64,000 bases of DNA from NCBI GenBank assembly GCA_902492325.1, contig CABULC010000004.1, positions 24,833 to 88,832 of the forward strand, in the 5' to 3' direction. Position numbers and translations under genes: made by a program. Numbering within the stretch: position 1 is the stretch's first letter; the number at the start of each line of letters is the position of its first letter. Below are positions 16,578 to 37,151 of the stretch, one piece after another. The notes beneath the pieces were generated by a model. The model was given only the letters and a program-made list of their open reading frames with translations. It was not told the origin of the DNA and did no database searches. This DNA comes from an uncultured Clostridium sp. Lineage in GTDB: Bacteria; Bacillota_I; Bacilli_A; RF39; UBA660.

Positions 16578-16620
16578 ATTTAAATATATAAAAAAATAGA
16601 TTATATCTATAATCTATTTT
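16578..16620 (-). terminator. Rho-independent terminator of the prepilin-like gene, overlapping its stop codon
   Basis: Perfect palindrome aatagattata-tc-tataatctatt, followed by a U-run on the minus transcript. Confidence 0.55.
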
Positions 16621-18185
16621 ACTTTGAATACTAAACCAGATGGTTTATAACTTGAATTATTTAAAAGTGTAGCAATAGTATCATTTTTAGCATAACCAAT
16701 TCTAACTTGAGCACCTCTAAAAATATCAGTTATATTGGTTGAACTACTGATATCAAAGCTACTTAAATCAAGTGAAGTAACTTTACTACTTGAAAACATT
16801 CCACCCATATCTGTAACCTTTCTAGTATCAAAACTCGTTAAATTTAAACTAGATGCTTTATTAGCATAAAACATATGATGCATATTAGTAACTTTACTTG
16901 TGTTAAAATTTCTTAAATCAAGTGTAGGAACAACACAATCATAAAACATAGAGCTCATATCAGTAACATTTGATGTATCGAAATTACTAACATCCAAACT
17001 GGTTGCAACACTATTCCAAAACATAAAGCCCATATCCCATACCTTACTAGTGTTAAATTTATTTAAGCCTTTAATTTGCGTTGCAGCTGCCCATCCAAAC
17101 ATATATCTCATATTAGTTACATTGGACGTATCAAAATTACTAACATCTAATGAAGTAGCTTTTGAAGTATAAAACATATATCCCATATCTGTAACTTTAC
17201 TTGTATTAAATTTACTTAAATCTAATGAAGTTGCTCTAGATCCAAAAAACATTCCACTCATATTTTTCACATTACTTGTATCAAAGCTACTCAAATCTAA
17301 ACTGGTTGCTGGATTACTTCTAAACATTCCATTCATATTAGTAACATTGCTTGTATCAAAATTATTTAATCCTTTTATTTCTTTAGCTCTACTTTCATAA
17401 AACATACCACCCATATTTATTATATTAGAAGTATTAATTTTTTCTAAATCAATAGAAGATGCTTTAGTTTGATAAAACATACACGATGTAGATACAACTG
17501 GCTTATTATTTATATACGTGCAAACTTGACTTGTTACAGGGTCAGTTGATTCTTGATCCGTTAAAGCTACACCCCATCCATCAGTGTTCATATTGCTCCA
17601 TCTAAATTTAATATTATAAATGCCACCTTGTTGCTTGTATCTATATGTATATTGTCCATTTACATATTCAGCACCCTGCACCATATCTCCATCAAAAGTA
17701 CAATTAATATAATTAGGGAGATCTGGATTGCTTGGTTTATCTGGCTGATTAGGATTATCAGGATTACTTGGCTCATTTGACCCACAATTATAATCATCTA
17801 AATTTCCATTTTCTAAATCATCTATAGTTAAATCTTCAACAGCTTTGCCATTTAAACTTGCTATCCATTTACCATTAGATACTTTCATATCAGTTACTTT
17901 ACCACTACTATTTAAAATGACACAATATTGAAGTTTCTTTCCTGTCATATCGAGTTTAGAATTGTCTTTTGAATTAATAACATTTGTTTTATTGCCACTT
18001 ATTGAATTTGATAAATACTTTTTTTCTGATTCACTATAAACCTTTTTTGCCTCAGTTAAAAAAATTTCTTTTTGTGCTTTGTTATACATATTTATTACAT
18101 TAGGTAGCGCTATAATTACTAGTATAGCTAAGATTGCTATCACTGCCAGTAACTCTACCAATGTAAAACCTCTTTTATTTTTCAT
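16614..18185 (-). CDS. Type IV prepilin-like N-terminus fused to DUF285/BspA-type repeats (putative minor pilin or tip adhesin)
   Basis: MKNKRGFTLVELLAVIAILAILVIIALP is a class III signal (G at -1, F at +1, E at +5). It is followed by about 10 repeats of F(D/N)TS(N/K)VT(N/D)M..MF, the DUF285 signature. Confidence 0.65.
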   Translation of the reverse strand: MKNKRGFTLVELLAVIAILAILVIIALPNVINMYNKAQKEIFLTEAKKVYSESEKKYLSNSISGNKTNVINSKDNSKLDMTGKKLQYCVILNSSGKVTDMKVSNGKWIASLNGKAVEDLTIDDLENGNLDDYNCGSNEPSNPDNPNQPDKPSNPDLPNYINCTFDGDMVQGAEYVNGQYTYRYKQQGGIYNIKFRWSNMNTDGWGVALTDQESTDPVTSQVCTYINNKPVVSTSCMFYQTKASSIDLEKINTSNIINMGGMFYESRAKEIKGLNNFDTSNVTNMNGMFRSNPATSLDLSSFDTSNVKNMSGMFFGSRATSLDLSKFNTSKVTDMGYMFYTSKATSLDVSNFDTSNVTNMRYMFGWAAATQIKGLNKFNTSKVWDMGFMFWNSVATSLDVSNFDTSNVTDMSSMFYDCVVPTLDLRNFNTSKVTNMHHMFYANKASSLNLTSFDTRKVTDMGGMFSSSKVTSLDLSSFDISSSTNITDIFRGAQVRIGYAKNDTIATLLNNSSYKPSGLVFKVK

Positions 18186-21189: not shown

Positions 21190-24100
21190 TTAATTAGCTA
21201 CTAAATAATTACTATAAGCTTTAAAGTATGTATTAGATCTATAATTACTTATATAGTCAGTAGGAACATACATTTGTAATTGATATGAAGTATCAAATGT
21301 ATCAAATCCAGTCAACTTAGGTACATCTGTATAAAAGTAATAAGCTGATAAATTTGTACATCCATTAAATGCATAAGCACCAATACTTTCAAGTATATTA
21401 TTCATATATATAGTATTTATATTAGTTTGATTAGCAAATGCTCTATAACCAATTGTTTTAACAGTAGATGGTACTGTAAAAGTAATAGCTGTTTTTCCAT
21501 TTGGATATCTAATTAATGAACTAGCATCTTTATTATAAAGAACTCCTGAAGTACTTGAAAATGTTGCATTGTTAGCATCAACATTTATATTACTAATATT
21601 AGAGTTTCCATCTAAGAATCCCCCCGGAATATCATCTAAATATCTTGGAAGTTTTAATGTTGTTACATATCTATTTCCATCAAATGCATCAGCTGTAATA
21701 CTAGTAACATTATAACTTCTACCATTAACATCTAATGTATCAGGAATAGTTACAGAAGCTGAACTTCCTGTATAAGATGTTATCTTAATTTCATTGTTAT
21801 TATTAAGTATATATAAGAAATCAGATGAATATTGGGCGCTCGAATAATTATGATAACTCCAAGGTGTAGCATTTCTAAAGTCACTTAGTACACTAGATGG
21901 TACAGAATAAGTAAAGTGTGAATTATACCATAAACCTAAGAATCCTCTTTCATATCCTGGAAGTGCATTAGACGCAGTATTTGGAACACTATTTACTTGC
22001 ATACTTAATGTAGTTGTTGGTCCACCTTGATATGGGTTATATAAAGCATAATCATTAATATTTGTTGTACCAGTACCAAATTGAATATATGAAATAGAGC
22101 CACAACTATAAAGACAATAATCATCAGCTACCACTACACTATTAAATATTGCATTAGTTAATTTTTCACAATCAGCAAATGAATATTTACCAAGTCTTGT
22201 TATTTGGTTTCCAGTTACTCTTGTAACATCTGTTTGATAGAATGCATAATCATCAATAAGAACTACACTATTAGGAAGATTAACTACCCATGTTTGACCA
22301 GTAACAACCTCTACTCCATAATAAGCATAAGTACCAATTGATACAACATCATGTGTTATACCACCAGCAGTAATCTCATTTGGAATTTCAAATGATGAAG
22401 TAACATCAGGTCCATGATATTCAATAATTTCCCAACCAGTTACATCAGCATTCATCATATTTTTAAGTGTTACTTCACGTACACTATATTCTCCAATATC
22501 ATATGGAAGTGTACCAAATTTATAACTACCAATTATATATCCAGTTGGATAAATATAATCTTTAACATTAGATGGGAATGTATTCTTATATGCTTCTTGA
22601 TAAGTTACATTTGAAGTACCTATCTTACCATCTGGAACATATATTCTAAATCTCTTTCCAATTGTAGTACCTACATTATAGAATGCATTACTTCCTACAC
22701 CAATTTTCATACCACTTGCTTGTGTATCAGCATTAGTAGAAGTAAAGAACATTTGCTCCATTCCAGTACATCCATAGAAAGCACCTTCACCAATACTTGT
22801 AACAGGTCCGGCATTAACATAGTTAAGAGTTATATTATTAGCATAAGCATAATTACCAAGTTCTACAAGTTTAGGAGTTGTTGCTTTATAAAGTTTATTA
22901 TTAAATAATGCGTACTCACCAATGTAATCAACATTTGAAAGATTAAGTTCACGAACACCTTGTAAATTATAGAATGCATAGTTTCCAATATATCTTAAAT
23001 TTGTATTAACTATATCAAATGTACTACCAGAACTCATTGTTACCCATCTAAATGCTCTCTCACCTACACCAATTACTTCATAACTTTGACCATCAATAGC
23101 TAATGTAGTTGGTAACATATAAGTAGCATTTAAGTCAGCACCATGATATTCAACAATTTCTAATCCTTTAACACTTTGATTATCTTTTGTTATATATTCA
23201 CGACTTACAACACTATATTCACCAATATTATATGGAATATTTGTAGAACTATAAGTACCCATTATTGTTCCATAATCATAGAAATAATCTTTATATTCTT
23301 TTCTAAATGAATTAGCATATACATCAGTTAAATAATCAGTTGAAGTTGTAATTGTAGTTGTATAGTAAGTACCAGTTGAACCAGATAAATGACCATATAA
23401 GTTTGTCCAAGTGCTACTATTTGTTGTTCTAACTGTATAACTAAATGTTGTACTTGAACCATTAGTTAACGTACCATTACTAGAAGTATTATTAAATACT
23501 ATTCTAGAACTTGATGCTTCATATAAAGCATTAGTAGCAGTTTGAAGTGTAGTATTTCCAAGAGTAACAGATGTAGTCCATGCTTCTATATCATGTCCAG
23601 AATCATTTCTAACTGTTACAGTACATACATAAGTATATCTTCTACTAGTACCATTACCCCTTTGACTTCTAGAACAACTATCAGTAACATTGATATTTAC
23701 ATTATTTGGAGTTTTAACTTCAGTTGAAGTATTAGAAGAACCAACATAGAATCTAATTCTATTATTAGTAAGTGTTCCAACATCAGTAAATGCATATTGA
23801 TCAAATACTCTAGTTTCACTTCCTGGAGTAAAGAATACTTGTACTAAATTTGGAAGAGCATAAACAGCGTTTGTATCCATTTGATATACAGAACCTAAAT
23901 TAATTTTATAAAGTGTATTCATATTAGCAAGTGCATAAGAACCAATGCTTCTTAAATTAGGTGTTTCTAAATATACAAGGCCACCATTATTAAATGCATA
24001 ACTTCCTATATCAAGTAAACTAGTAGATGTAAATGATTTAATAGCTGTAATTCCTTCGAAACTATGATCTCCTAATTTCATAAGTTTATTATTAACTATA

Positions 24101-27100
24101 TCACTACCACCGCTACCATTAACAGTAGTATGTTTAAATGCATGATCACCTACAGCTATAACATCTTTAGTAACTCCTTTTATTGTATACGTAAGTGGAA
24201 TATTAAATGTATTAGATATATCTGCTCCATGATATTCAATAATTTCCCAACCATTAACATCTTGATTATTTCTATCTTTTATAGTTGTCTCTCTTACACT
24301 ATACTCACCAATATCATATGGAATTGGTGTATTGATAAATGAACCAACTATATATCCAGTTGGATAAATATAATCTTGATAATTACTAAATAATGCTTTA
24401 TAGAAATCAACTTTTCCTTCAGGTACATATATTCTAAGTCTATTATTAGCATTAGTACCAATATTATTCATCGCTGTACTATGAACTGACATGTTATCAG
24501 TATTAGTAGTACCTATAAATATTTGTTCTAAGTTAGGGTTATTACTAATAGCATTCTCTCCCATTACTTGAATATTACCAAGGTTAACACTATATAAAGT
24601 ATCCATATCCGACATAGCATATTTACCCATAGAATTTAAATTTGGAAGGTCTACTGTTTGAAGACCAGTATTATATAAACTATAGTCTCCAATAGAAATT
24701 AAACTCTCTGAAGTAAGTGATTTAACTTTAATATTTTCAAGACCATGATTATCTATATTTATTAAATTATTCGCAAGTAAATCAATAGTTTGATTTGATG
24801 ATGAAGCAGTATGTCTATATGCATACTCGCCTACTGAAATTATATTCATTAAAGGACTAGTCGAAGAATATACACTCAAGATACCAATACTTAAACTTTG
24901 AGAAGACATATCATAATAGAATGACAATTGTTTACTTTCTCCAGGAGCAATAGTTCCATTATAATCTTTACTTGTTAAGATTAATAAGTTACCATTTACA
25001 CTTTCATTAGCTCCAGTATAAGTAGAACCCCATGTAACACCCGTTGGAAGATTTATTCTAACAGTCCAATCATTTATAGTAGCTGTTGTATTATTTGTAA
25101 TTGTTAAGTTACCACCAAATCTGTATCCACTACCATTTTGCCATGAGTTACCAGTTATAGATGCAGATAATCCTTCGTCAGATACTATAACATCTGGTAT
25201 TTGATAACTACTAGTTAAATCAGCTCCATGATATTCAATAATTTCATAAGCAGTTACATCTTCGCCCTGAGCATTCTTTTTAGTAACACCACGTACACTA
25301 TATTCACCCCAATCATATGGAATAGCTACGTGTTTATAACTACCAATTATTGTTCCTTTAGGATATACAAATGATTCATTAGCAGCAAATATCTTCTTAT
25401 ACCCTTGTAAATAATCAAATCCTTCAGCATCTGTTCCTGATGGAACATACACTCTAAGTCTACCATCTAAGTACATTCCCCAATTTGTAAATACAGCATC
25501 TTCACCAACAGTTAAATCAATACTTTTACCATTATTTACAACCTTAGTAGAAATATTACTAAACCAAACTCTACCAAGTTGAGGACAATTATAAAATGCT
25601 TTATCACCTATTACTTTAACAGTTCCAAGGTCCATCTCATAAAGAGTTGTACTATTCATAAACGCATATGACATTATTTCATCAACATTAGGAAGACTAA
25701 TATAAGTTATTGGATTTTGATAGAAACCATAAGAACCAATATATTCAAGTTTATTAGAAACAAGTGTAGTTAACTTTGTATCATAAAATGCATATGAATT
25801 TATTTTACTAACTTCACCTAAATTTATTTCAGTTATATTATCTTTATAGAATGCATATGAATCAATTAATGACACAGTATTTGGAATAGTTATCTTAGTA
25901 CCAGTAGCAGCTGTATTTAAATTCCTATATGAATTATATCCAAGTGCAGTAACAGGTTTAGTAACAGATGATTTAGTTATATTATTTGGAATAGTAATAC
26001 TAGAACCAACTGATACACTATTTATAAAGTATGAAATTCCATATCCTTCACCATAATCATAAACAAAATATTGTTTATTATCAGATAATTCTCCGTGATA
26101 ATATACATATGCTTCATTAATATTTTTAGTATTTCTAAATGTTTCAATTGCTCCTTGACTTACAAAGAACTTAGTACCATTAGAACTATCATTAAATGTA
26201 TTACTTCCAATAGTTGGAGGAATTTGTCCTCCAAACTTAACATATCTTGCATTAGCAAATGCTCCATCACCTATATTAGTTACAGTAGATGGAATTGATA
26301 AGAATGTAAATGCTCTAGAAGTAGATATACGGCCTAGGTTAACATTAGCAAATGCATTAGAACCAATAGTTGTTAATGTTTTAGGAAGAATTAATGTCTT
26401 AATACTTGTCTTATCTTTTAAAGTATTATTAGCTATTTTATTAATTGTTGTTCCATCGCTAACAGTAGCATTCGCAAGTCCTAAATATTCTATAGAATGC
26501 ATTTCATCACTAGCTATATAAGTAAAATCTTCATTTTCAAAATAAGCACTATTTAATGTATATATTATTAATTTCTTAATATTATAAATATTTTCAGTAG
26601 TAGTTGTAGGATCAATATCATCAAAGTATGCTTTTAATAGCTTTTCTAATGATTCGTTATTATCACGAATATAAACATAATATGAATTTTCTTCACCTTG
26701 AATTGGTATTACAGAATCTTCAGGAGCACCCTGATTGATATCATCTCCAGTAAAGTTATCAGATCCGCCAACTGTAATATTGTTAGATGAAACTCCTCTT
26801 ATAATTAATGTATTACCAGTGTTAGGACCAGTATATGGTGTTGAGTTAGATGGAAGCATAATAGAAGGTCCATTTAATACCCCAAGAATTGTATTTAAGT
26901 TGTATACATATATTTGATATTTAGAGAATGAATCAATAAGTTTCATGTTTTGAAGTTGTATTTGAGTAATAGTACCATTATTAAGAATCTCAATGTTAGT
27001 TGAACCATCTGCTCCTATTACATAACCTACTTCTACATTAGGTGCAATAGTTAAACGAGTATTTGATTCAACAATTATATCAACAGGTATATTACCTACT

Positions 27101-28530
27101 TTATTTTTAACAATTCTAACAGCTTCTAATAAAACACCATCTTCCTCTTCATTTTGAATACCATTAACAGTAAATTCTTTACCAACAAATATATCATAAT
27201 CTTGATTTAAACCAACAATATGTATTTGACTCTTTGGAGTATTTATATATAAATTTCCATCAACATCTATTTTTCCACCAGAGGAAGTATCAATGTTAAG
27301 TTTACCCATCTCAACGAAATCATAAACTAAGTCTCCAGTAAAATGTAAGTTGTATCCAGCAGTATCTAAATGTACTCTACGTTGAAAATCAACACTACCA
27401 TCAATCTTAATATCATCAGCAAGCTTAATTGTATCTCCACTAAGAGCATTAAGTGCAGCATCTCTAAATTGACTTTCATTTTCTACTAACCAAATTTGTC
27501 CTTCATTAGCAAGGCTAACATCTATTCCTCTTTGAGTACAATACACGTTCGCATGAACACTTACTGAAGCTCCACTATATAATGACGAATTAACATTTTG
27601 ATACATACCATAATCTATTCTAAAGTATCTATAATTATTTTCATCATCATCTTTATCTTTATCTATTTCACCTTTAATAATTATTTGAGGTATTGTAGTT
27701 AAATTTGATACTGGGTTTAATGCATCAGTTTCAAGATTATCAGGTGTTGGATTTGAAGCAGCATATGCTTTTAACTTAGTATCATTAGTAGCAGTAACTG
27801 TACTTGAAAGTACTTCATCAGTAATATCTATAACTCTATAATATAGTACTCCTGCATTAGACATTGTTCCATCTAACGTAAATGATAAGTTATAATCTAT
27901 ATTTAATGAACCAGTATTTTTAATCTCAATATATCTTGTATTCTTAAATGTATTACTTAAATCTGTTTCACGTACTACAGTAACGGTGTCACCTTCAGTA
28001 CCAATTAAAACACCAGATTTATCATATTGATTAACTATATGTTCTACAGTACCTAATTTAATTTCAGTACCTTTACTAACATATTCATTATAAAACCAAC
28101 TATAAGCATCATATATTAAGAAAACACTAAGTATGACAAGTACAAATGATTTAGCCATAATTCTAGGAGTCATATATTTAGAATATTCACTTCTGTAACC
28201 GTCTATTCTCTCTTTATTTTTAGTTTTAGCTAAACTCAAGTACTCTTTAAATTCACTATAATATTCTTTTGCATATCTCTTAAACTTTTTACAATATAGT
28301 ACTATATAAAGTCTAATCTTTTTTAAGAATCTTAAATTATAAATTGAATCAATAAATCTATATAGATAAACAGATACTACTATTACACCAAGTATTTCAT
28401 AATAGTAAAACTTTCTTAATTTCTTTCTAATTTTTTTATAACATCTTTTAAATCTTTTTTTAGCAACATGAAAGAAATCAATTAAATAATTGATTAATGC
28501 ATTATAAATTTTATTAATGCTTTCTTTCAT
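21190..28530 (-). CDS. Giant (2446 aa) surface protein. It has a Lys/Arg-rich N-terminal region, a TM or signal segment ending in a SipW-type AYSWF motif, multiple BspA-type leucine-rich repeat blocks and four ~230-aa internal modules.
   Basis: A strong RBS aaggagtagatATG sits at the first ATG. AKSFVLVILSVFLIYDAYSWFYNE resembles SipW-cognate signals. LRR_5-like stretches include IGSNAFANV... and IGDKAFYNCPQL... The module IPY(D/N)(W/I)GEYSV...EI(I/V)EYHG(A/P)D recurs four times. There is no LPXTG motif. Confidence 0.7.
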   Translation of the reverse strand: MKESINKIYNALINYLIDFFHVAKKRFKRCYKKIRKKLRKFYYYEILGVIVVSVYLYRFIDSIYNLRFLKKIRLYIVLYCKKFKRYAKEYYSEFKEYLSLAKTKNKERIDGYRSEYSKYMTPRIMAKSFVLVILSVFLIYDAYSWFYNEYVSKGTEIKLGTVEHIVNQYDKSGVLIGTEGDTVTVVRETDLSNTFKNTRYIEIKNTGSLNIDYNLSFTLDGTMSNAGVLYYRVIDITDEVLSSTVTATNDTKLKAYAASNPTPDNLETDALNPVSNLTTIPQIIIKGEIDKDKDDDENNYRYFRIDYGMYQNVNSSLYSGASVSVHANVYCTQRGIDVSLANEGQIWLVENESQFRDAALNALSGDTIKLADDIKIDGSVDFQRRVHLDTAGYNLHFTGDLVYDFVEMGKLNIDTSSGGKIDVDGNLYINTPKSQIHIVGLNQDYDIFVGKEFTVNGIQNEEEDGVLLEAVRIVKNKVGNIPVDIIVESNTRLTIAPNVEVGYVIGADGSTNIEILNNGTITQIQLQNMKLIDSFSKYQIYVYNLNTILGVLNGPSIMLPSNSTPYTGPNTGNTLIIRGVSSNNITVGGSDNFTGDDINQGAPEDSVIPIQGEENSYYVYIRDNNESLEKLLKAYFDDIDPTTTTENIYNIKKLIIYTLNSAYFENEDFTYIASDEMHSIEYLGLANATVSDGTTINKIANNTLKDKTSIKTLILPKTLTTIGSNAFANVNLGRISTSRAFTFLSIPSTVTNIGDGAFANARYVKFGGQIPPTIGSNTFNDSSNGTKFFVSQGAIETFRNTKNINEAYVYYHGELSDNKQYFVYDYGEGYGISYFINSVSVGSSITIPNNITKSSVTKPVTALGYNSYRNLNTAATGTKITIPNTVSLIDSYAFYKDNITEINLGEVSKINSYAFYDTKLTTLVSNKLEYIGSYGFYQNPITYISLPNVDEIMSYAFMNSTTLYEMDLGTVKVIGDKAFYNCPQLGRVWFSNISTKVVNNGKSIDLTVGEDAVFTNWGMYLDGRLRVYVPSGTDAEGFDYLQGYKKIFAANESFVYPKGTIIGSYKHVAIPYDWGEYSVRGVTKKNAQGEDVTAYEIIEYHGADLTSSYQIPDVIVSDEGLSASITGNSWQNGSGYRFGGNLTITNNTTATINDWTVRINLPTGVTWGSTYTGANESVNGNLLILTSKDYNGTIAPGESKQLSFYYDMSSQSLSIGILSVYSSTSPLMNIISVGEYAYRHTASSSNQTIDLLANNLINIDNHGLENIKVKSLTSESLISIGDYSLYNTGLQTVDLPNLNSMGKYAMSDMDTLYSVNLGNIQVMGENAISNNPNLEQIFIGTTNTDNMSVHSTAMNNIGTNANNRLRIYVPEGKVDFYKALFSNYQDYIYPTGYIVGSFINTPIPYDIGEYSVRETTIKDRNNQDVNGWEIIEYHGADISNTFNIPLTYTIKGVTKDVIAVGDHAFKHTTVNGSGGSDIVNNKLMKLGDHSFEGITAIKSFTSTSLLDIGSYAFNNGGLVYLETPNLRSIGSYALANMNTLYKINLGSVYQMDTNAVYALPNLVQVFFTPGSETRVFDQYAFTDVGTLTNNRIRFYVGSSNTSTEVKTPNNVNINVTDSCSRSQRGNGTSRRYTYVCTVTVRNDSGHDIEAWTTSVTLGNTTLQTATNALYEASSSRIVFNNTSSNGTLTNGSSTTFSYTVRTTNSSTWTNLYGHLSGSTGTYYTTTITTSTDYLTDVYANSFRKEYKDYFYDYGTIMGTYSSTNIPYNIGEYSVVSREYITKDNQSVKGLEIVEYHGADLNATYMLPTTLAIDGQSYEVIGVGERAFRWVTMSSGSTFDIVNTNLRYIGNYAFYNLQGVRELNLSNVDYIGEYALFNNKLYKATTPKLVELGNYAYANNITLNYVNAGPVTSIGEGAFYGCTGMEQMFFTSTNADTQASGMKIGVGSNAFYNVGTTIGKRFRIYVPDGKIGTSNVTYQEAYKNTFPSNVKDYIYPTGYIIGSYKFGTLPYDIGEYSVREVTLKNMMNADVTGWEIIEYHGPDVTSSFEIPNEITAGGITHDVVSIGTYAYYGVEVVTGQTWVVNLPNSVVLIDDYAFYQTDVTRVTGNQITRLGKYSFADCEKLTNAIFNSVVVADDYCLYSCGSISYIQFGTGTTNINDYALYNPYQGGPTTTLSMQVNSVPNTASNALPGYERGFLGLWYNSHFTYSVPSSVLSDFRNATPWSYHNYSSAQYSSDFLYILNNNNEIKITSYTGSSASVTIPDTLDVNGRSYNVTSITADAFDGNRYVTTLKLPRYLDDIPGGFLDGNSNISNINVDANNATFSSTSGVLYNKDASSLIRYPNGKTAITFTVPSTVKTIGYRAFANQTNINTIYMNNILESIGAYAFNGCTNLSAYYFYTDVPKLTGFDTFDTSYQLQMYVPTDYISNYRSNTYFKAYSNYLVAN
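22000..26200 (-). repeat. Four diverged ~0.7-1.1 kb intragenic repeat modules within the giant gene (approximate bounds)
   Basis: Recurring protein module ...IPYD.GEYSVR..T.K......V.G.EIIEYHGAD..... flanked by LRR blocks. Confidence 0.45.
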
Positions 28531-28539
28531 ATCTACTCC

Positions 28540-29082
28540 TTATTGATTTTTTATTTTTTTAACATCCTTTACTATATCTTTTATTTCAAAGAAATATATA
28601 AGTCCTAAAGGTATAATTATTATAAGTATAAATCCTAATTTAGTATCCATTATTCTTTCTATAATACTAAATAAGAAAAATTTATATATGTATTTTCCAA
28701 GCATTTGTTCTTCATAAACCGCTGGGTCATTTGACACATTTTTAATACCTTTAGTATAAAATATTCTTCTATTGTTTTCTTTTGAAATTCCAACTATTTC
28801 GTGAGTAACTATTTTACCTTTTAAGTCTCCATCCATTCCTCTAAAAGTAACTATATCTCCAACTTTATAGTCAGATATTTTTTGTTTTTTTATAAGTATT
28901 ACATCACCTTTTTTTAGTTTAGGATACATACTATTAGTTATTATTGAGTAAGTTCTAAATCCAAAAACACTTGGATTATTTGGCACTACTTTTTGATAAG
29001 CAGTTGCTATTACAAATAGTACAAGTAAGATAAGTAATATTATTTTAATAACATCTAATATTTTAAGTAATACTTTTTTCAT
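28540..29082 (-). CDS. sipW: Signal peptidase I, archaeal/ER-type (SipW-like), paralog 1
   Basis: N-terminal TM, box B TNSMYPKLKKGDVILI, box D IVTHEIVGI. Confidence 0.75.
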   Translation of the reverse strand: MKKVLLKILDVIKIILLILLVLFVIATAYQKVVPNNPSVFGFRTYSIITNSMYPKLKKGDVILIKKQKISDYKVGDIVTFRGMDGDLKGKIVTHEIVGISKENNRRIFYTKGIKNVSNDPAVYEEQMLGKYIYKFFLFSIIERIMDTKLGFILIIIIPLGLIYFFEIKDIVKDVKKIKNQ

Positions 29083-29093
29083 ATATATCCTTT

Positions 29094-29669
29094 CTATGGT
29101 TTAATAAACATTATTTTGTTAACTTTTAGTGATGTTCCCTGTAATGCATTTGGAGCATCTATATCTATTTCTAAATTCCAATAATAATTTAATGTTGAGT
29201 TCGCAGGAATTGTAACACTTTTAGCAAAATCGAAGAAATATCTATCATCCTCTTCATTATGTTCAAGTCTATCATTAAGCATAAATGAGAATGTTTCAGG
29301 GTTAGTAGCACTTATTTTTAAATAATTCTTCATAAAATTTATATTACCTGTTATTTCAGTAAATACAATCTTAACTTTAGCAGCTACCTTATTTTTATTA
29401 GTTAATTCAAACCTATATCTTTGTATTTTTCCTGGATACATTTCATCAAGAGTAATAAGTGCATCAGCACTTTGTTGTCCTTGAAGAACATAAGTATTAT
29501 TAACAAGAGCATAAAGTTTAACATCTATATCACTATCAGTTATATAAAAGTCACGATTATATTCAATGTTTTCGCCTAAAGATGGTTCTGTTTGCATCCA
29601 TCCATAAGCTATTCCTATTAATAAAGCAATTATTAGAATATTTAATATTATTGATATATTCTTTTTCAT
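29094..29669 (-). CDS. TasA/camelysin-like SipW-dependent secreted protein (small paralog, family 1)
   Basis: Likely ATG start at MKKNISII (RBS GGGGG); the track's upstream start is a TTG. Signal ends IAYGWMQTE. C-terminal motif is shared with the neighbouring paralogs. Confidence 0.5.
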   Translation of the reverse strand: MKKNISIILNILIIALLIGIAYGWMQTEPSLGENIEYNRDFYITDSDIDVKLYALVNNTYVLQGQQSADALITLDEMYPGKIQRYRFELTNKNKVAAKVKIVFTEITGNINFMKNYLKISATNPETFSFMLNDRLEHNEEDDRYFFDFAKSVTIPANSTLNYYWNLEIDIDAPNALQGTSLKVNKIMFIKP

Positions 29670-29670
29670 A

Positions 29671-30723
29671 TTAACCCCCAAATGTTACCAGTGTTGCATA
29701 ACTTTCTGGAGATACACCAACCACTTCAGCAATTCTAACATATACACTTTGATATCCTGTAAATTGTTGATTTGGATCAGTTACCTTAGTCCATACAGTA
29801 TTTTGATCATTAGTAGTTGCCCATTCCATTGTAGTATCAAGTCCAGTAATTGTATAGTTAGTATTTCCAGTTAATGAAGGAGCCGCTAATAATTCATTCG
29901 CACTACCAAACTTAAATAATACATTTATTATTGTAGAAGCAAGAGCATTAGTACAATCAACATCTCCCCCTTCTAACCATATCTTAAGATTAACTTGCAT
30001 TCTAGAGTTTTTAGGAATAGTAAACAGCACTTTATTAAGATCAATATTATCACTATCACTAGAACTTCTTCCACCATCTTTAAAACTAAAATTACGAACT
30101 AATTGGTTAGTAGAATATTCACTAGGTACATTACCAAAAGTAAATTTTCCAGTTTTAATTATAGCCTTAGTTGTATACGGATCAGTTATACCATTTTCAG
30201 GTGTTTTACCAAATATCACTGTCGCAGTTGAACTACTTGAAGTTGGATAAGTAATTGCTATTCTAAGAGCATCCCACGCAGGACCAGTAACTTTAGTATC
30301 CCTATGTATATATACATGTTTTGGATAGTCTTCAGTTTGTAAATAAAAATTAAAATCAACGTAACCATTCTCTATCATTTGAGATACACTTCCATCAGAC
30401 TTAGGAAGTAAAATAAATTCTGGATCAGTCAATGATAAACCTTCATTAAAATCAATTGTATAAAAGTTAGCAGCATCTACACTAGATACTTGTTTTAACT
30501 CAAATTCATCAAAATTATCTAACATATTATTTAAATTAACAACACTTCTAGCAGCAGAATCTGGTTGAAGTTTTATAACCAATCCTTCAGCAGCACTAAC
30601 CTGAATATTAGATAAGTTTATTTGAGGATTTGATCTATCTTGAAACCATGCATATGAAGTCATAAATAATATAACAGTAAATCCAACAAGTAATATTATT
30701 TTTACTATTATTTTCTTATTCAT
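29671..30723 (-). CDS. TasA/camelysin-like SipW-dependent secreted protein (family 1)
   Basis: Signal peptide ending SYAWFQD (matches the B. subtilis TasA GTWAAFND logic). C-terminal motif NLKIWLEGGDVDC. Confidence 0.5.
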   Translation of the reverse strand: MNKKIIVKIILLVGFTVILFMTSYAWFQDRSNPQINLSNIQVSAAEGLVIKLQPDSAARSVVNLNNMLDNFDEFELKQVSSVDAANFYTIDFNEGLSLTDPEFILLPKSDGSVSQMIENGYVDFNFYLQTEDYPKHVYIHRDTKVTGPAWDALRIAITYPTSSSSTATVIFGKTPENGITDPYTTKAIIKTGKFTFGNVPSEYSTNQLVRNFSFKDGGRSSSDSDNIDLNKVLFTIPKNSRMQVNLKIWLEGGDVDCTNALASTIINVLFKFGSANELLAAPSLTGNTNYTITGLDTTMEWATTNDQNTVWTKVTDPNQQFTGYQSVYVRIAEVVGVSPESYATLVTFGG

Positions 30724-31892
30724 TAATTTTCACCCCCAAACTTAACAATTACTGCTTTAGATGCTAATAACTCATCTGTTTCTTTATATCTAACATATAC
30801 AGTAGAATTCTTATCAAATGTTACAATATTTTTATATTCAATGTATGTAAGACCATTATCAGTTGAATACTCCATGTGTTCATTTATACCATCTATAGTT
30901 TTACTAACATCATCAGCTTTAACATTTGGAACATTGGTGTTTTCCTCTTTAGTAATACCTACAAAAGATAAATTTATTTTAAATATTCCACCTTTTAAAG
31001 CAGAAACAGCATCTCTATCATTTCCTTCTACCCATACTCTAACTTTAAGTCCAGCTTTTTTCTCTAGCCCATCTTCTGTATCTATAGATACAAGTACTGG
31101 ATCTCCATTAGCCATTTTGGTATCATATGAAGCGCTTATATCATCTTTTAAATTATCTAAATCTTCTTCACGAAAAGTATTTGAATCTTCAACTTTAATA
31201 TATTTATAACTTTGACTATTAGTTGATTCAACATCAGCTGTAAACCAACCATCATTTTCAATTATTTCATATGTTTTATTTGGAGCCCAAATTAGAACTG
31301 GTTTATCTTCAAGTTCAAAACTATTAGTTTCCTCATTAAAATTATATCTTATAAATGCGACTCTAACAGCCCCAGCTATTAAGTCTCTACTAAAGTCTCC
31401 ATAAGCACTAGCTCTAACAATATCATCTATCTTTTTATCACTACCTGGAGTTAATACCAAGTCTTCTTTTTTAGTACCACACTCTGGAGTAACACTAGAA
31501 TCTTCTTCTAAAAATAATTTAACAGAAGAATCATTCTTAAACCAAACATCAAATTCTAAATAATCTTCATTAAGAGTAGCATTAGTAAAACTTAAAGGAG
31601 TTCCATACTCATCTTTTAAATTAGCTTTATAGAAATTAATACCATCACTAGTTACTTCATTATTAAATCTAAATCCTTCACCAACATCAATATTAAATGA
31701 GTCTCCCCAACCTTGATTTCCATCTTCAGAAATCATAATATTATTTGTTTTAGCAGTACCAATATTAACTCCTTCTACATTACTATCACTTTCATGAACA
31801 AACCAAGCATAAGAAAAAACAAATATAGATACAATTATAGCTATAAGTTTAAACATTGTAACATAAATATTTTTACTTGCTTCCTTATTCAT
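30723..31892 (-). CDS. TasA/camelysin-like SipW-dependent secreted protein (family 1)
   Basis: Signal peptide ending SYAWFVHE. C-terminal motif VRVWVEGNDRDA. Confidence 0.5.
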   Translation of the reverse strand: MNKEASKNIYVTMFKLIAIIVSIFVFSYAWFVHESDSNVEGVNIGTAKTNNIMISEDGNQGWGDSFNIDVGEGFRFNNEVTSDGINFYKANLKDEYGTPLSFTNATLNEDYLEFDVWFKNDSSVKLFLEEDSSVTPECGTKKEDLVLTPGSDKKIDDIVRASAYGDFSRDLIAGAVRVAFIRYNFNEETNSFELEDKPVLIWAPNKTYEIIENDGWFTADVESTNSQSYKYIKVEDSNTFREEDLDNLKDDISASYDTKMANGDPVLVSIDTEDGLEKKAGLKVRVWVEGNDRDAVSALKGGIFKINLSFVGITKEENTNVPNVKADDVSKTIDGINEHMEYSTDNGLTYIEYKNIVTFDKNSTVYVRYKETDELLASKAVIVKFGGEN

Positions 31893-31895
31893 ATA

Positions 31896-33008
31896 CTACC
31901 TCAAATATGCAAATGCATCTTGTTTATTCTTTCTATATCCTTTAAGAAGTCCTTTAAACTTCTTAATAATCTCTTTGTCTGTTTTTAACTCTTTTTCATG
32001 AGCTAATTTAAACTCTTCAGTAAGAATCTTTTTGAATTCCTTTTCAGAATATTTTCGATTATTAATCATAAAGTCAGCAATCAACTTGCGAAGAGCATAT
32101 CTATTAATTTTATCTTCTTTAAATGTTTTATTAGAATCGCTCTCATTAAGTATTACATAATCTAAGAAGAATGCCATGTCCATTCTATTTTTAGTTTTTT
32201 CATCATCTACTTTTTCATGAGAATCATTAACTTCCTTCTTATCTTTAACATCATATTGCTCTATAAATTCCCATAATTCTAATGCTTTTTGAAAGTTTGG
32301 ATTTTTAAGAATAGTATTTGTCTTTCTAATTGGAGATTTTACTGGAGCAGCACTTGCAAGTTCTTTAACAAATGGTGTTTTTAAAAAGTCAGCAACTACT
32401 AACTCAATCTTAGCAAGTCTTTGTTCAACACTCTCTCCACTTGATGAAGTACCACTTAAATCTTCAAATGAATTAGTTTCCATATTTAAAGTTATATTTA
32501 CTTCATCTTTTCCTAACTTAGTTTTACCATTATAAGTCATTATTCTCTTTTTCTTAGCATAACTTCCACTCGCAGTAGCTTCTTTTCTAAGTTTAAAGAA
32601 ATAATTAAGGTTATTTAATAATGATATTACAAATCTATTCTCATAAATATCAAAGCTTTCTTCCTTGTTTACATTAAGTACTTTACTAGGAGTAATTGTT
32701 CCATCTTCACTAACATCTTGTATTAAATCAGTATGTTGTGCTAAATGTTTTATAGTTTCTTGACTAATCTTTTTAGCTTTTTCTACTGGAACTATTTCTT
32801 CTTCTTGCATTATGAATCTTTTAGGGTTTCTAATGATATTATCAAGATAAATAAGAGTTTCTTCTATTTTATCTATCCATGAGTAATCATACTCTACACT
32901 TTGAAAAGATGAATTAACAACAACTTTAGATTCATTAGAACCAACAAATTGTTGCATAGCTAAATTATCTGTATCATCTAATAAATTTAATAATTCGTTT
33001 TTATTCAT
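31896..33008 (-). CDS. Hypothetical cytoplasmic protein in the McrC position downstream of the McrB-like GTPase. No nuclease motif is evident, and the C-terminus is K/E-rich.
   Basis: Tightly coupled to the upstream AAA+ gene (13-nt gap). No PD-(D/E)xK motif recognisable by eye. Confidence 0.4.
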   Translation of the reverse strand: MNKNELLNLLDDTDNLAMQQFVGSNESKVVVNSSFQSVEYDYSWIDKIEETLIYLDNIIRNPKRFIMQEEEIVPVEKAKKISQETIKHLAQHTDLIQDVSEDGTITPSKVLNVNKEESFDIYENRFVISLLNNLNYFFKLRKEATASGSYAKKKRIMTYNGKTKLGKDEVNITLNMETNSFEDLSGTSSSGESVEQRLAKIELVVADFLKTPFVKELASAAPVKSPIRKTNTILKNPNFQKALELWEFIEQYDVKDKKEVNDSHEKVDDEKTKNRMDMAFFLDYVILNESDSNKTFKEDKINRYALRKLIADFMINNRKYSEKEFKKILTEEFKLAHEKELKTDKEIIKKFKGLLKGYRKNKQDAFAYLR

Positions 33009-33021
33009 CTTTTATTCCTTT

Positions 33022-34623
33022 CTACATTGCTTTCTTAAGTCTAGCTAAATATTCTTTACATTCACTCATATTTTCTTTTCCAAATGTTTTATCTAAGAAT
33101 TTAACATATCCATCTATCTCATCACGAATGAATGATAAGTTTAATTGTTCAAACTTTCTAAGTACTTTTTTACAAAGTATATAATCAAATCCATCTAACT
33201 CAGTACCACCACATGCTACATATACTGGAATGAATTCTTTAATATGTTTTACGATACGGTTTCCAAAGGCTAGTCTGAAATGTTCAATAACATAATTGTC
33301 CATATCTTCTAACTTATTAAGTGTATCTTGACTAACTGCATGTTCTTGCTTAGCTTTAGTAAATAAGCTTTCTAAGTAACTACTATTAATTCTAATACCT
33401 TCTGTATCAGGTGCATCAAATGGTTGACCTTTATCATTAATATCTATAGGCATCGCACGGTCGTATACCTTATCTGTTACCATAAATGTTGAATCATCAT
33501 TATTGATTGTACCAATGTACCACATGTTATCTGGTATCTTAAGTTTACCATCAGGTAAATGTTTAGGATCGTTTGGCCATACATTTGGTACCAAATCTAT
33601 TACCCATTCATCACGAGAAGGCATTTCTAATATAGATAGCATTTCTGCGAAATAGTATTCAACACGAGCTATATTCATTTCATCTAGTATTGTTAAATAC
33701 ATTTCATCATTATAACTTGCTTCATACATAGCTTTTAATACTTCTGTTTCGTTAAACTTTTTAGTAAACTCGTTGAAGTAACCAAATAGCTCTGTTCTAT
33801 CTCTCCATGAAGGTTGAACTGAAGCAATAGTTGCATCTCTACTAATAAATTTTCCCCAAGCATATGGAAGTGATGTTTTACCAGTACCAGAGATACCTTG
33901 TAAAATTACAAGTCTTGTTGCTCCAAGAGCTGCTACAAACAAACGAATAATTTTAACTTTATAATATAGTTTCATACGACTAGCAGCAAAGTTTCTAAAA
34001 GTATCACATAATTCTTCAAGTGTGAATGTATTACCAAAGTTTTCTGGTTCTTTATTTGCATACTCTTCATCAATTTGAGTTAACTTGAAGAAACGACTTC
34101 CATTAGCCGCTTCAGGTATAGCTTCAGCTGGAGTCTCTTCACCTTCACCAGTTTCACCTTCAGTAGTAGTACTTTCACTAGTACTCTTAATATCACTAGG
34201 TAAATCTACATTCAAAGCACTCTCTTGAGGTTTAAGACCAATTTGTGAAACTTTCAAAGCATATAATTCTTCTTTTTCTTGATTAAGTCTTATAACATCT
34301 CTATCAAGTTTAGCCACTTCTTCTAATAAACTTTCTTGCTCAACTAAAGTTTTCTTAAACTTAAATATTTTTCTAATTAACAAAAATACCAAATATATAA
34401 TTCCAAGTAAGAATGCAAGTATAAGTAATACTGCTAAACCTACTAATATCCATTGACCAACTGAAAATTCTCCAGAATATTCTTTTAATATTTTCAAATA
34501 TGCTTTAAAGTTAAACATCTTAATAATGCCTTTAAAAAATCCCATAAAAATATTTATTATTCCGGAAAAGAATTGTTCAAATAAATCATATAAAAATCTA
34601 ATATATGTTGACAATTCTTCCAC
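33022..34623 (-). CDS. Membrane-anchored McrB-family AAA+ GTPase (AAA_5), with N-terminal TM helices and a coiled coil
   Basis: Walker A VILQGISGTGKTS. Walker B region YLTILDEMNIARVEYYFAEMLSILE (compare McrB IDEINRAN). McrB signature WYIGTINNDDSTFMVTDKVYDRAM (compare IIGTMNTADRS...D.ALRRRF). Two hydrophobic helices occupy the first ~100 aa. The start codon is ambiguous: GTG at 34623 or TTG ~9 nt downstream, after RBS agaggtgg. Confidence 0.65.
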   Translation of the reverse strand: MEELSTYIRFLYDLFEQFFSGIINIFMGFFKGIIKMFNFKAYLKILKEYSGEFSVGQWILVGLAVLLILAFLLGIIYLVFLLIRKIFKFKKTLVEQESLLEEVAKLDRDVIRLNQEKEELYALKVSQIGLKPQESALNVDLPSDIKSTSESTTTEGETGEGEETPAEAIPEAANGSRFFKLTQIDEEYANKEPENFGNTFTLEELCDTFRNFAASRMKLYYKVKIIRLFVAALGATRLVILQGISGTGKTSLPYAWGKFISRDATIASVQPSWRDRTELFGYFNEFTKKFNETEVLKAMYEASYNDEMYLTILDEMNIARVEYYFAEMLSILEMPSRDEWVIDLVPNVWPNDPKHLPDGKLKIPDNMWYIGTINNDDSTFMVTDKVYDRAMPIDINDKGQPFDAPDTEGIRINSSYLESLFTKAKQEHAVSQDTLNKLEDMDNYVIEHFRLAFGNRIVKHIKEFIPVYVACGGTELDGFDYILCKKVLRKFEQLNLSFIRDEIDGYVKFLDKTFGKENMSECKEYLARLKKAM

Positions 34624-34748: not shown

Positions 34749-35303
34749 TCATTTAACTTTCTTATAATCTAGTAACAACATTATAAATTTATATAATTGA
34801 TATATAAAGAATGCTGCTAAAGGTAAAATGATACATACAAAGAATCCAACTTTAGCTTTTAAGAATGTTAGGATTGAACCTAAAACCGGTAATCTTGTTC
34901 CATTCCATACAGAGATAATATCTCCAGGAGCAACTTGTTGTGGATCTTCTCCAGTATTAGCATCACCTTGAGTAACATAAGATGTCATACCATTTACTGT
35001 AAGTACTGATTTAATTCTGTGTGTTTTAATTATTTTAGTATTTTCTTCCATTGCGAAGAATGCAATAACATCCCCCTCTTTTAATACAGTTTTTCCATCA
35101 TAACTCTTAGTAACAATTAAGTCACCAGTCTTAATAACAGGTTCCATTGATCCTGTTTGAATATTTAGAGGGATGTATCCAAATATTTTAGAAACTCCTT
35201 TTTCACGAGAAGTTAATGTAATCAAAGTTACACTAGCTGCTAAAATAATAACAACCCAAATTATTATATCTAAAATAACTTTTAAAATCTTTTTTCCTTT
35301 CAT
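34749..35303 (-). CDS. sipW: Signal peptidase I, archaeal/ER-type (SipW-like), paralog 2
   Basis: Box B TGSMEPVIKTGDLIV, box D IIKTHRIKSV, N-terminal TM. Confidence 0.8.
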   Translation of the reverse strand: MKGKKILKVILDIIIWVVIILAASVTLITLTSREKGVSKIFGYIPLNIQTGSMEPVIKTGDLIVTKSYDGKTVLKEGDVIAFFAMEENTKIIKTHRIKSVLTVNGMTSYVTQGDANTGEDPQQVAPGDIISVWNGTRLPVLGSILTFLKAKVGFFVCIILPLAAFFIYQLYKFIMLLLDYKKVK

Positions 35304-35321: not shown

Positions 35322-36446
35322 CTATACACCAGCATTTTTAGATATTTGAATGTTGAAAGTAATATTAGAACCAGAAGCATTATTTTCACAGTCATAATCT
35401 TGTCCTTCAACCCATCCATATATTCTAACCTTATTAATACCAGCAGCTAAGTTAAATAATGTTTTATATTCTCCATTAGCAGTATTTCCATTTGGAGTTT
35501 GAATATCAGGAGTTACTTGATCAAAATATGTAGTAACTTTTGATTGATAGTCTACTGCAGGATTTGCAGCAATAGCAGCTTTAATACCATAGTAATTAGG
35601 TACAACTGTAGTCGTATCATATGTAGTTTCACCATAGTTGTTTGCTTGTGCTACACCAGCAGCTGTGTGTATATTTGAGTTTGGTTCCCAGAACATATTA
35701 GTAGCACCACCAGCACTATGACTAGCAGCACCTTTTAATGCAATAGCATCTGCACTAGCACCTGTAGCAGCACTACCTTCATAAAGGAATGCAACTCTAG
35801 CGGCATTCTTAAGTCCAGTATCAGCAGCAGTAGCTACAACATCTGATGAAGTTGTTAAATATACTGTAGTAGCTTGTGTAGTTAATAAGAATAAATCAAA
35901 TGCAATAAAGTCACCTGTAGTACCTGCTTTTTCAATAGATTGTTCTGCAACTAATCTATAACCATGAGCAGTAGTAGCATCAGCTTCAATACTACCTTTA
36001 TACATTTTCATAAATCCTGTAGTAGCATCTACATCACCTATAGTAGATACAGGAACAATTTGATTTGGTAATTGGTTTGTATTACCAGCATAAGCATTAG
36101 CAGTAATATCATTAGTTGAAATATTTGCTTTCCAGTTAACAGCATCTACAGAAACTTGGATACCATTAGCAGCACTAACATTTACATCAATGCTATCAAC
36201 AGTAACAGTTGTATTTTCAGTGAACCATGCATAAGATGCAGTAGTTAAAGAAATAGCAGTAACTATCAACATAAGGAATGCAGTAAGAATCTTTTTACTA
36301 TTATTATTTGATTCTTCATGATTTTCTTTTACAACATTGTTTTCAACAACATTAGTTGCTTGTGGTTGAGCAGGAGTATTATTAACAACTGCTTGATCAA
36401 CAGGTGTTGTTTGAACATTGTTTTTTACATTGTTTTCATTTTCCAT
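35322..36446 (-). CDS. TasA/camelysin-like SipW-dependent protein (family 1) with a ~50-aa N-terminal cytoplasmic extension
   Basis: TM ILTAFLMLIVTAISLTTASYAWFTEN. C-terminal motif VRIYGWVEGQDYDC. Confidence 0.5.
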   Translation of the reverse strand: MENENNVKNNVQTTPVDQAVVNNTPAQPQATNVVENNVVKENHEESNNNSKKILTAFLMLIVTAISLTTASYAWFTENTTVTVDSIDVNVSAANGIQVSVDAVNWKANISTNDITANAYAGNTNQLPNQIVPVSTIGDVDATTGFMKMYKGSIEADATTAHGYRLVAEQSIEKAGTTGDFIAFDLFLLTTQATTVYLTTSSDVVATAADTGLKNAARVAFLYEGSAATGASADAIALKGAASHSAGGATNMFWEPNSNIHTAAGVAQANNYGETTYDTTTVVPNYYGIKAAIAANPAVDYQSKVTTYFDQVTPDIQTPNGNTANGEYKTLFNLAAGINKVRIYGWVEGQDYDCENNASGSNITFNIQISKNAGV

Positions 36447-36461: not shown

Positions 36462-37151
36462 TTAATCAGTTTTTTCAGTAATTATCATAGACATTTTCAT
36501 TTCCCCTCCAATGATATCATCGATACATTCAGGGTCTTTACCTTCAAGCCAAACAATTACAGTGTACCTGTCTATTTCACCAGGTTTAATGTTATTTCTA
36601 TCTTGTTGCATTATTAAATGATTTGATAAAAACGATATTGTATTTGGTTCAGCTTTGCCATCTTTAGACTTTTTAGCATAAACCTTTTTTTCGCCATTAG
36701 TATAAAGAGCAACTCTAACAGCCTCATCAACATTCTTTATAACAGATTCTATAACAATCTTAGATTTATAACTAACATTCTCTTTTCCATCATTTTTTAC
36801 AAAGAACGTATATGCGATATAGTTATCTTCACTATGATCACCTTCTTTTGATATTAAACTATCAAAAGGAATCCACCCTTCAGTAATGTTATCCATATAC
36901 TCTAAACCTTTTACTTTGATTTCAACAGTTTCCGCAGAAAACTCTGAATCAGAAGATAAAAGTATATGTCTTTCAGACTTTAAATTTTTATCTAGTTTAA
37001 TTGTAAAATAACCATTGCTATTCACAACATATAATATTAAATATAATATTGAGAAAAACAGTAATAAAACTAATAAAGCCATTTTTACAATTCTAGTAAA
37101 TAATTTTCGTCTATAAACTTTTTCAGCAGTTACTTTAACAATATTATCCAT
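36462..37151 (-). CDS. Family-1 paralog with an uncleavable-looking N-terminal anchor (possible TapA-like anchoring or accessory protein)
   Basis: TM LLVLLLFFSILYLILYVV lacks the A-W-F motif. The C-terminus shares the family motif VIVWLEGKDPEC. Confidence 0.4.
   Translation of the reverse strand: MDNIVKVTAEKVYRRKLFTRIVKMALLVLLLFFSILYLILYVVNSNGYFTIKLDKNLKSERHILLSSDSEFSAETVEIKVKGLEYMDNITEGWIPFDSLISKEGDHSEDNYIAYTFFVKNDGKENVSYKSKIVIESVIKNVDEAVRVALYTNGEKKVYAKKSKDGKAEPNTISFLSNHLIMQQDRNNIKPGEIDRYTVIVWLEGKDPECIDDIIGGEMKMSMIITEKTD

Follow-up and report, generated by a model that had tools for sequence, protein, structure and literature searches.

Fibres of the TasA type are known as biofilm scaffolds assembled from small subunits. 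In TasA, residues 28-38 are donated as a strand to the next subunit, whose fold they complete (PMC9674648), and TapA has been proposed to supply the first strand and so to nucleate TasA (PMC9674648, PMC10151520); TasA also forms heterofilaments with CalY (PMC13082335), and for BsaA, membrane-tethered oligomers have been proposed to form ahead of cleavage by the signal peptidase SipW (PMC11580942). Here we describe a gene in which a module of this type is fused to a 250-kDa adhesin with leucine-rich repeats (LRRs) and CBM2 carbohydrate-binding modules. It lies in a stretch of 64,000 nucleotides (nt), hereafter the window, from an uncultured Clostridium sp. of the human gut (GenBank assembly GCA_902492325.1, contig CABULC010000004.1, positions 24,833 to 88,832 of the forward strand), and its product, a giant protein of 2446 amino acids (aa), is encoded directly downstream of a gene for a SipW-type peptidase, sipW1. 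We consider it probable, and hold with moderate confidence, that this protein is the precursor of a SipW-processed adhesin that would take its place, independently of any sortase, in a TasA-like fibre, either at the tip or as nucleator. The principle of TasA and SipW is known; the fusion to a giant adhesin and the unusually long n-region of its signal peptide are new, and full-text literature searches returned no paper joining SipW or TasA-like proteins with leucine-rich repeats.

A genome scan, in which each species was represented by one genome, gave 23 loci, all of them in metagenome-assembled genomes of uncultured gut bacteria labelled Bacilli, Mollicutes or Mycoplasmatota bacterium, Clostridium sp. 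CAG:524 or CAG:1000. Fourteen complete orthologues with an N-terminal identity of 64-98 % measure 2442-2474 aa, a fifteenth (locus L006) runs off its contig, and in the more distant genomes of the scan the orthologue has 2244-2579 aa. An exhaustive HMMER search added some 18 more representatives of full length (1978-2612 aa), along with a broader group of proteins between 1000 and 2250 aa long, whose alignment consensus shares the N-terminal domain, the middle region and the LRR_5 repeats described below (LRR_5 being matched by 19/19). Clustered at 50 %, the family comprises about 40 large representatives, all unnamed, and its homologues are either nameless or labelled only 'hypothetical protein'. 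A 7.3-kb open reading frame (ORF) in DNA of 27-30 % G+C that is conserved in more than 20 genomes is not a chance product, and the occurrence of the family in widespread uncultured gut bacteria with small genomes bears on attachment to host or food particles.

Signal helix and cleavage motif

The precursor ORF (21190..28530, minus strand; 2446 aa plus stop, from the ORF list and its translation) opens at the first available start codon after an in-frame stop. The strong ribosome-binding site that the original prediction placed at this first ATG is present as AAGGAG (28536..28541, minus strand), 5 nt 5' of the ATG and overlapping the sipW1 stop codon (28540-28542), and among the ten orthologues shown the corresponding site is of the AGGAG type or GGAG in seven and AAGGTG in two more. 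The sipW1 stop TAA occupies 28542-28540 and the ATG of the giant gene starts at 28530, which leaves a gap of 9 nt where an overlap of 10 nt had been claimed; an overlap, of 11 nt, was found two genes upstream, between g350 (29671-30723) and g195 (29094-29681). The same TAA stands in frame with the giant ORF, three codons before its ATG (28528-28542), which is probably a coincidence, because the arrangement is not conserved (in locus L003 the gap is 8 nt).

The protein begins with an extension of 125 aa (28156..28530, minus strand) that composition and hydropathy reveal as net basic, with 32 K/R against 10 D/E, followed by a hydrophobic helix at aa 124-142 that ends in DAYSWFYNE, just as had been predicted. 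The extension also holds a weakly hydrophobic stretch at aa 42-63, which is conserved (FYYYEILG…, aa 41-63). It is presumed to be an expanded n-region that stays in the cytoplasm, and a single membrane span (aa 126-144) is more likely than two: a second span would keep the body of the protein on the cytoplasmic side, and a very basic loop would separate it from the first.

Hydropathy and the family alignment place the h-region and a SipW-type cleavage motif at aa 126-144 (AKSFVLVILSVFLIYDAYS; 28099..28155, minus strand), with a Kyte-Doolittle peak of 2.0 over the helix and a predicted cut between S144 and W145. Position -1 is A, S or G in all 37 distinct family contexts and position -3 is small (S/T/A/G) in 35 of them, with +1 always W, so that the residues at the site follow the -3/-1 rule of signal peptidases. 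The SipW-type motif read from the sequence by the original prediction finds support in the alignment of AYS|WFYNE with GTTFA|WFTD of remote relatives, 22/37 of which match TIGR04088. The whole giant protein gave no match to TIGR04088, and the scan of the isolated domain began only three residues before the predicted cleavage site, too late to be informative for a model of signal peptides. A hydrophobic helix, the pattern small-x-small|aromatic-F/Y-x-D/E and a neighbouring sipW gene are all present, and cleavage of the SipW type is accordingly a prediction from sequence for S144|W145. The expected lack of an LPXTG motif and of a C-terminal anchor was borne out: LPxT[GAS] is absent from the entire protein, no hydrophobic window occurs past aa 200, and the C-terminus reads …YSNYLVAN, so that the C-terminal LPXTG, hydrophobic helix and basic tail that define the sortase-anchored class are all missing.

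A TasA/camelysin-like domain and its putative donor strand

Directly behind the predicted cut, aa 145-340 (27511..28098, minus strand) constitute a TasA/camelysin-like jelly-roll, identified with an AlphaFold2 (AF2) model, Foldseek, profile searches and hhalign. The AF2 model of this N-terminal domain is a jelly-roll with a predicted local distance difference test (pLDDT) of 75.8 and a predicted template-modelling score (pTM) of 0.76, and Foldseek returned the TasA fibre 8aur_A among the top matches (E 2.2e-3, probability 0.97, query TM-score 0.39), with a query TM-score that was the highest in the list, tied with the picornavirus capsid chain 7x2o_B. The homology itself was traced through remote relatives. 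A HMMER profile of aa 142-347 collected 87 proteins at E<=1e-3 among 1.84 billion representatives, and 23/37 of its remote small matches also match PF12389 Peptidase_M73 (best 1.8e-9) and two match the BsaA family, their consensus bearing the camelysin/TasA hallmarks NxGSL and YRxDYGM…AGNxYQ…ATQ. When the domain of the giant protein was compared with that set of relatives by hhalign, signal peptides removed, the two aligned over 179 columns with a probability of 99.8 % and E 1.2e-27. One of the 19 remote large homologues matches PF12389 directly. A search of PDB sequences with the domain profile gave no match, and a word-indexed homologue search with the same profile recovered only fragments of the family itself. 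We conclude that aa 145-340 is a divergent member of the TasA/camelysin superfamily that lies outside the Pfam family as defined. The original prediction had left the protein as either a fibre-attached adhesin or a permanently anchored one, and a TasA/camelysin-type jelly-roll directly after the cleavage site gives the first option a basis.

The first residues of the domain, aa 145-165 (WFYNEYVSKGTEIKLGTVEHI; 28036..28098, minus strand), are a putative donor strand. W145, Y147, E149, G154 and G160 are invariant across the family, and residues 1-17 of the AF2 monomer model (aa 142-158) have a pLDDT <50, that is, they are disordered although they carry invariant residues. Its position corresponds to that of residues 28-38, the donor strand, in TasA (PMC9674648), and by this analogy the segment may complete the fold of a neighbouring subunit.

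Adhesin body and operon

The remainder of the protein starts with a conserved middle domain without annotation (aa ~345-690; 26461..27498, minus strand), which, like the TasA-like domain, the original prediction had passed over. It has the lowest ratio of non-synonymous to synonymous substitution rates (dN/dS) of the protein, 0.01-0.04, and about 120 invariant columns in nine sequences of 51-97 % identity. No orthologue scanned gave a Pfam match or a PDB sequence match for it; a beta-helix, which had been suggested by eye, found no support in these searches. The body beyond it is of the LRR_5/BspA-like kind that had been proposed, with PF13306 LRR_5 matching at E 2.7e-91 and 302.5 bits against a gathering score of 27.7, in seven stretches, and with separate matches in six segments. 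The first BspA-type LRR_5 region covers aa ~691-1047 (25390..26460, minus strand; Pfam LRR_5 matches in the segments aa 640-900 and 880-1070), and the scan by segment places the blocks at aa ~690-985, 1232-1345, 1478-1584, 1837-1934, 2054-2165 and 2350-2420.

Between these blocks a repeat element (in its first copy …IPYDWGEYSVR…YEIIEYHGAD…IP) was located by regular expression and by a hidden Markov model (HMM) of its four copies, all on the minus strand, at aa 1048-1117 (25180..25389), 1381-1450 (24181..24390), 1743-1812 (23095..23304) and 1986-2055 (22366..22575). Within them IPYDxGEYSV is found at aa 1070, 1403, 1765 and 2008 and EI[IV]EYHGxD at 1096, 1429, 1791 and 2034. Four internal modules of about 230 aa had been described; the number stands, the period does not, as the spacings are 333, 362 and 243 aa. 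They exceed 230 aa because of inserted stretches, namely a CBM_2 carbohydrate-binding module at aa 1128-1210 (24901..25149, minus strand; PF00553, E 2.7e-11, 44.1 bits, cut-off 24) and, with a lower score, a CBM_2-like stretch at aa 1635-1707 (23410..23628, minus strand; PF00553, E 5.8e-4, 20.6 bits, which falls short of the same cut-off). Both are insertions specific to the window lineage, and the bare period of 228-243 aa is visible in distant orthologues that lack CBM2 inserts. Nor is the repeat a separate spacer domain: in each module one LRR block ends, a conserved hairpin-like element follows, and a new LRR_5 block sets in. The xEIIEYxGxD…IP part is similar to the way in which BspA-type LRR domains commonly start, and the last block of the giant protein, at the C-terminus, opens in the same manner. 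A body of LRRs and CBM2 would be suited to binding host, microbial or dietary-fibre surfaces.

The gene order around the giant gene is g373 - g229 - g374 - sipW2 - (optional pilin-like DUF285 gene) - McrB-like - DUF2357 - g389 - g350 - g195 - sipW1 - giant - pcrA, and it is identical in every locus that covers the region, including those only ~47 % identical; the succession g195-sipW1-giant is kept in 21/21 loci that reach upstream of the giant gene. The giant gene is the last of a seven-gene operon, as the spacings are tight from the McrB-like gene onward (13, 3, -1, -11, 11 and 9 nt as far as the giant gene), and a terminator-like hairpin lies 3' of sipW2. The product of the upstream gene sipW1 (28540..29082, minus strand), of 180 aa, is a signal peptidase I of the endoplasmic reticulum/archaeal type that matches TIGR02228 with 94.4 bits (cut-off 51.85) and the Bacillus SipW equivalog with 76 bits, below the cut-off of 190, and its Ser and His are conserved. 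The second peptidase gene, sipW2 (34749-35303), is canonical and keeps GSMEP / THR / GD[AN]N. Immediately upstream of sipW1, in all loci, lies g195 (29094..29681, minus strand), which encodes a small protein with an AYG|WM motif; without its signal peptide it was aligned by hhalign to the Peptidase_M73-like set with a probability of 88.5 % and E 2.7e-6, so that it is probably TasA-like and a candidate partner subunit.

Four further genes on the minus strand, g229 (36462-37151), g350 (29671-30723), g374 (35322-36446) and g389 (30723-31892), form a paralogous second family with pairwise values of 45-98 % and a C-terminal WxEGxDxDCEN common to all. Three of them, g350, g374 and g389, carry a signal motif of the SYAWF type, in place of which g229 has an uncleavable-looking transmembrane segment. 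When the N-terminal domain of the giant protein was compared with the neighbouring small proteins by phmmer and hhalign, mostly the signal peptide aligned, and no link to any of these four was left once it was removed. The product of g374 has more than 1420 unnamed homologues and a confident AF2 model (pLDDT 89.7, pTM 0.91), for which Foldseek found no match in the PDB (best E 0.1). In the cluster L026 (9291-21002), from a more distant lineage, a SipW with a fused C-terminal extension of 230 aa comes after the g229-like and g374-like genes, and behind it stands a different giant gene, whose product of more than 2800 aa carries a signal anchor of the ordinary kind but lacks a TasA-like domain. 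It thus seems that g229, g374 and SipW make up a portable core, which can be combined with one giant surface protein or another.

The head of the operon (31896-34623, minus strand) encodes an McrB-like AAA+ protein of 533 aa and a DUF2357 protein of 370 aa. The former has a strong transmembrane helix (aa ~57-83), its AAA+ domain is almost invariant, and it matches PADLOC PDC-M26A (2.8e-37) and, in the PDB, Escherichia coli McrB (1.8e-5). We considered the pair as an inserted restriction or defence island and rejected this, its position and operon coupling being conserved in 20/20 full loci; it is absent from L026 and decays along with the giant gene in locus L024, and it looks co-opted rather than inserted.

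Two genes elsewhere in the window deserve mention. One (16614-18185, minus strand) encodes a protein whose N-terminus is like that of type IV pilins (FTLVELLAVIAIL) and which continues with many DUF285-like 'FDTSNVTNMxxMF' repeats; genes akin to it occur in L003 (2194-3810), L004, L005, L011 and L015, and in some genomes, not in the window, such relatives sit between sipW2 and the McrB-like gene. The other (10793-12415, minus strand) encodes a protein of 540 aa whose C-terminal third resembles a class B sortase (…NINYPIVQHNDNSYYL…IIYGH…LSTC…), as judged by eye only; no LPXTG substrate was noticed in the cluster.

Competing readings and known systems

In the reading as a fibre subunit, translation of the giant protein starts at its first ATG, and the net-basic extension of 125 aa would remain in the cytoplasm. 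Export would proceed co-translationally through Sec, with the basic extension holding the N-terminus inside and the helix at aa 126-144 in the membrane, until the protein is cut behind A-Y-S144 by a SipW-type peptidase, which may be the neighbouring SipW1 or the canonical SipW2. The cut would expose W145 and a conserved strand of 15-20 residues, and the freed strand and the jelly-roll could then join a TasA-like partner, most obviously g195, by strand complementation, the strand entering the beta-sandwich of its neighbour as in TasA, TapA and BsaA. The body of some 2100 residues, comprising the middle domain, the LRR_5 blocks and one or two CBM2 modules, would thus be carried on the fibre as its tip or nucleator. 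We infer cleavage, strand complementation and display on a fibre from the homology with TasA/TapA, CalY and BsaA (PMC9674648, PMC10151520, PMC13082335, PMC11580942), whereas the layout of the protein, the homology of its N-terminal domain, the translation of its extension, the conserved residues around the cleavage site and the stable number of repeats are results of the analysis.

Several results weigh against this proposal. In 21/21 SipW1 orthologues, I, L, T or K stands where GDxN has its Asp, which makes the activity of SipW1 uncertain and suggests that it may be a peptidase of altered or reduced activity; the residues compared are the Ser, His and Asp (Asp106) of B. subtilis SipW. The link to TasA is distant: the Foldseek TM-score is only 0.39, and picornavirus capsid jelly-rolls appear at similar E-values; PF12389 matches neither the whole protein at E<=0.01 nor, at E<=10, the isolated domain or those of ten orthologues; when the domain and its ten counterparts were scanned with Pfam and NCBIfam, only noise came back, with no Peptidase_M73, TIGR04088 or BsaA; and direct hhalign to TasA, whose sequence was checked to be identical to 8aur_A, aligned a single motif, the C-terminal one, SLYSGASVSVHANVYCTQ with NKYQGNSIKLQFSFEATQ, at E 0.06. 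The products of g229, g350, g374 and g389 show no detectable link to TasA, and the g374 model has no fold match in the PDB, so that the fibre itself is a putative one. Finally, purifying selection on the extension is odd for a segment that is merely discarded.

This last point leads to the main rival, which we regard as unlikely but as the strongest of the alternatives: the protein could be a permanently anchored type II membrane adhesin, with aa 126-144 as an uncleaved signal anchor, the basic extension as a functional cytoplasmic tail and the TasA-like domain as a membrane-proximal stalk. The extension is indeed translated as part of the protein. Proteins of the close clade all begin MK[EDR]SINK…, have AYSWF at residue 142 and keep the lead of 141 aa in frame, and over aa 1-125 six pairwise comparisons gave a dN/dS of 0.11-0.34, which denotes purifying selection, weaker than in the remaining protein. 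Such conservation in the close clade, an adjacent SipW1 without the GDxN Asp, and the lack of any other anchor in the protein all suit a permanent anchor. Across the family, however, the extension ranges from 24 to 286 aa and differs in sequence between lineages, being net basic throughout, and relatives with n-regions of 24-30 aa resemble ordinary cleavable signal peptides. The -3/-1 rule is moreover obeyed in essentially all orthologues with W invariably at +1, conservation peaks in the residues that follow the motif directly, which is what a donor strand would lead one to expect, and a canonical SipW2 is present.

Somewhat less likely still, the protein might be processed by SipW and then simply released or left to self-associate, outside any fibre made of the cluster's proteins. 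Proteins of the camelysin/TasA family also occur in soluble or cell-envelope-bound form, and the second family of substrates in the cluster is not detectably TasA-like, both of which would accord with release. The strict synteny with g195 and sipW1 over large divergence and the conservation of the disordered N-terminal strand argue for a fibre instead, and a freed adhesin of 250 kDa without attachment to the cell would not tether it.

A more speculative possibility, to which we give about as little credence as to simple release or slightly less, is that the giant adhesin is the cargo of an undescribed fibre machine made of TasA-like proteins, SipW substrates of unknown fold, the McrB-like AAA+ protein and the McrC-N-like DUF2357 protein, in which the extension would be the handle by which the motor controls export, cleavage or release of the 2300-residue passenger. 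If so, a restriction-type NTPase pair would have been recruited to the biogenesis of a fibre or adhesin.

The remaining two alternatives are very improbable. The original prediction had suggested that the internal repeats drive recombinational length variation, in other words a contingency locus in which the four repeats recombine to give length variants between strains. Four related copies are present, the longest exact DNA repeat in the gene measures 29 nt and recurs in frame 1815 nt apart, and copy number does vary over deep divergence, from three (2/39) through four (32/39) to five (5/39) in 39 full-length or near-full-length proteins. Among close relatives it does not: by the HMM of the element, the window protein and each of the 14 complete close orthologues, all of 2442-2474 aa, have four copies, and these sit at the same positions, a comparison that includes the ~98 % identical loci L001, L002, and L011 with L022 (two fragments of one assembly). 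The copies, moreover, share 27-50 % protein identity and only 67-80 % DNA identity over <=131 nt. A shortened allele, P0012, was considered as proof of variation in copy number and rejected, since on its contig the giant gene carries a frameshift and the McrB-like gene is in fragments; we read it as decay rather than phase variation because the cluster is fragmented and neighbours are missing. A decayed cluster, L024 (contig k141_11755, 4265-12784), belongs to a related lineage and has its McrB-like gene in pieces and DUF2357, g389 and g350 absent; a frameshift has left its giant gene short, with a single repeat element, and the same product of 927 aa is found on three contigs. Weakest of all, translation from an internal Met120 or Met125, which with the following R/K and hydrophobic helix would make a textbook signal peptide of 20-25 aa and leave 119 upstream codons untranslated, is practically dismissed by the want of a Shine-Dalgarno sequence at either ATG and of conservation of either Met, by three orthologues (L005, L006, L013) with zero in-frame ATG, GTG or TTG across aa 96-131, and by the selection on the upstream part and the conserved start codon and ribosome-binding site, which identify the first ATG as the true start, as originally proposed.

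The fibre subunit thus remains the preferred reading, and the closest described counterpart is the TapA-SipW-TasA system of B. subtilis, in which a SipW-type peptidase gene is likewise flanked by two substrate genes, one small and one larger, a conserved N-terminal strand precedes the jelly-roll of the substrate, and attachment is independent of sortase (PMC9674648, PMC10151520). TasA and the giant protein also have in common xNxGSL and a domain-end YxGxS…[AC]TQ, both matched by eye, of which hhalign aligned the second only. In contrast to TasA, the TasA-like domain of the giant protein, too divergent in sequence for a direct PF12389 match, accounts for no more than the initial 8 % of the mature protein, with some 2100 residues of adhesin behind it, its signal peptide bears a basic extension of 125 aa, and two SipW genes belong to the cluster, as do four proteins from a different family and an McrB-like ATPase. 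Several TasA-like paralogues encoded together with SipW are also found in the SipW-BsaA-BsaB-BsaC system of Clostridium perfringens and the SipW-TasA-CapP-CalY system of Bacillus cereus, where heteropolymers and accessory proteins occur and where, for BsaA, a membrane-tethered intermediate before SipW cleavage has been proposed (PMC11580942, PMC13082335). Two remote relatives of the giant's N-terminal domain match the BsaA family model; these systems differ in having no giant LRR fusion, and BsaC is a von Willebrand factor A (vWA) protein rather than one with LRRs.

With BspA-type LRR adhesins such as HupY/LrrG (NF047961) the giant protein shares a body of LRR_5 blocks and a partial match to the HupY/LrrG model, with a score of 71 against a cut-off of 1250 bits; where those adhesins have LPXTG, a lipobox or a type IX secretion (T9SS) signal, it has a TasA-like domain. 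Tip adhesins of the FimH type in chaperone-usher pili unite a fibre-subunit domain, completed by strand complementation, and a receptor-binding part in one polypeptide. The resemblance to them is a functional analogy only, as fold, secretion route and phylum differ and the giant protein would donate its own N-terminal strand with no chaperone or usher. The cleavage site, the donor strand and the partner subunit are offered here as predictions, and the fusion of a TasA-type module to the adhesin suggests that dedicated tip adhesins, familiar from chaperone-usher pili, can also be borne by donor-strand-exchange fibres of bacteria of the Gram-positive type.

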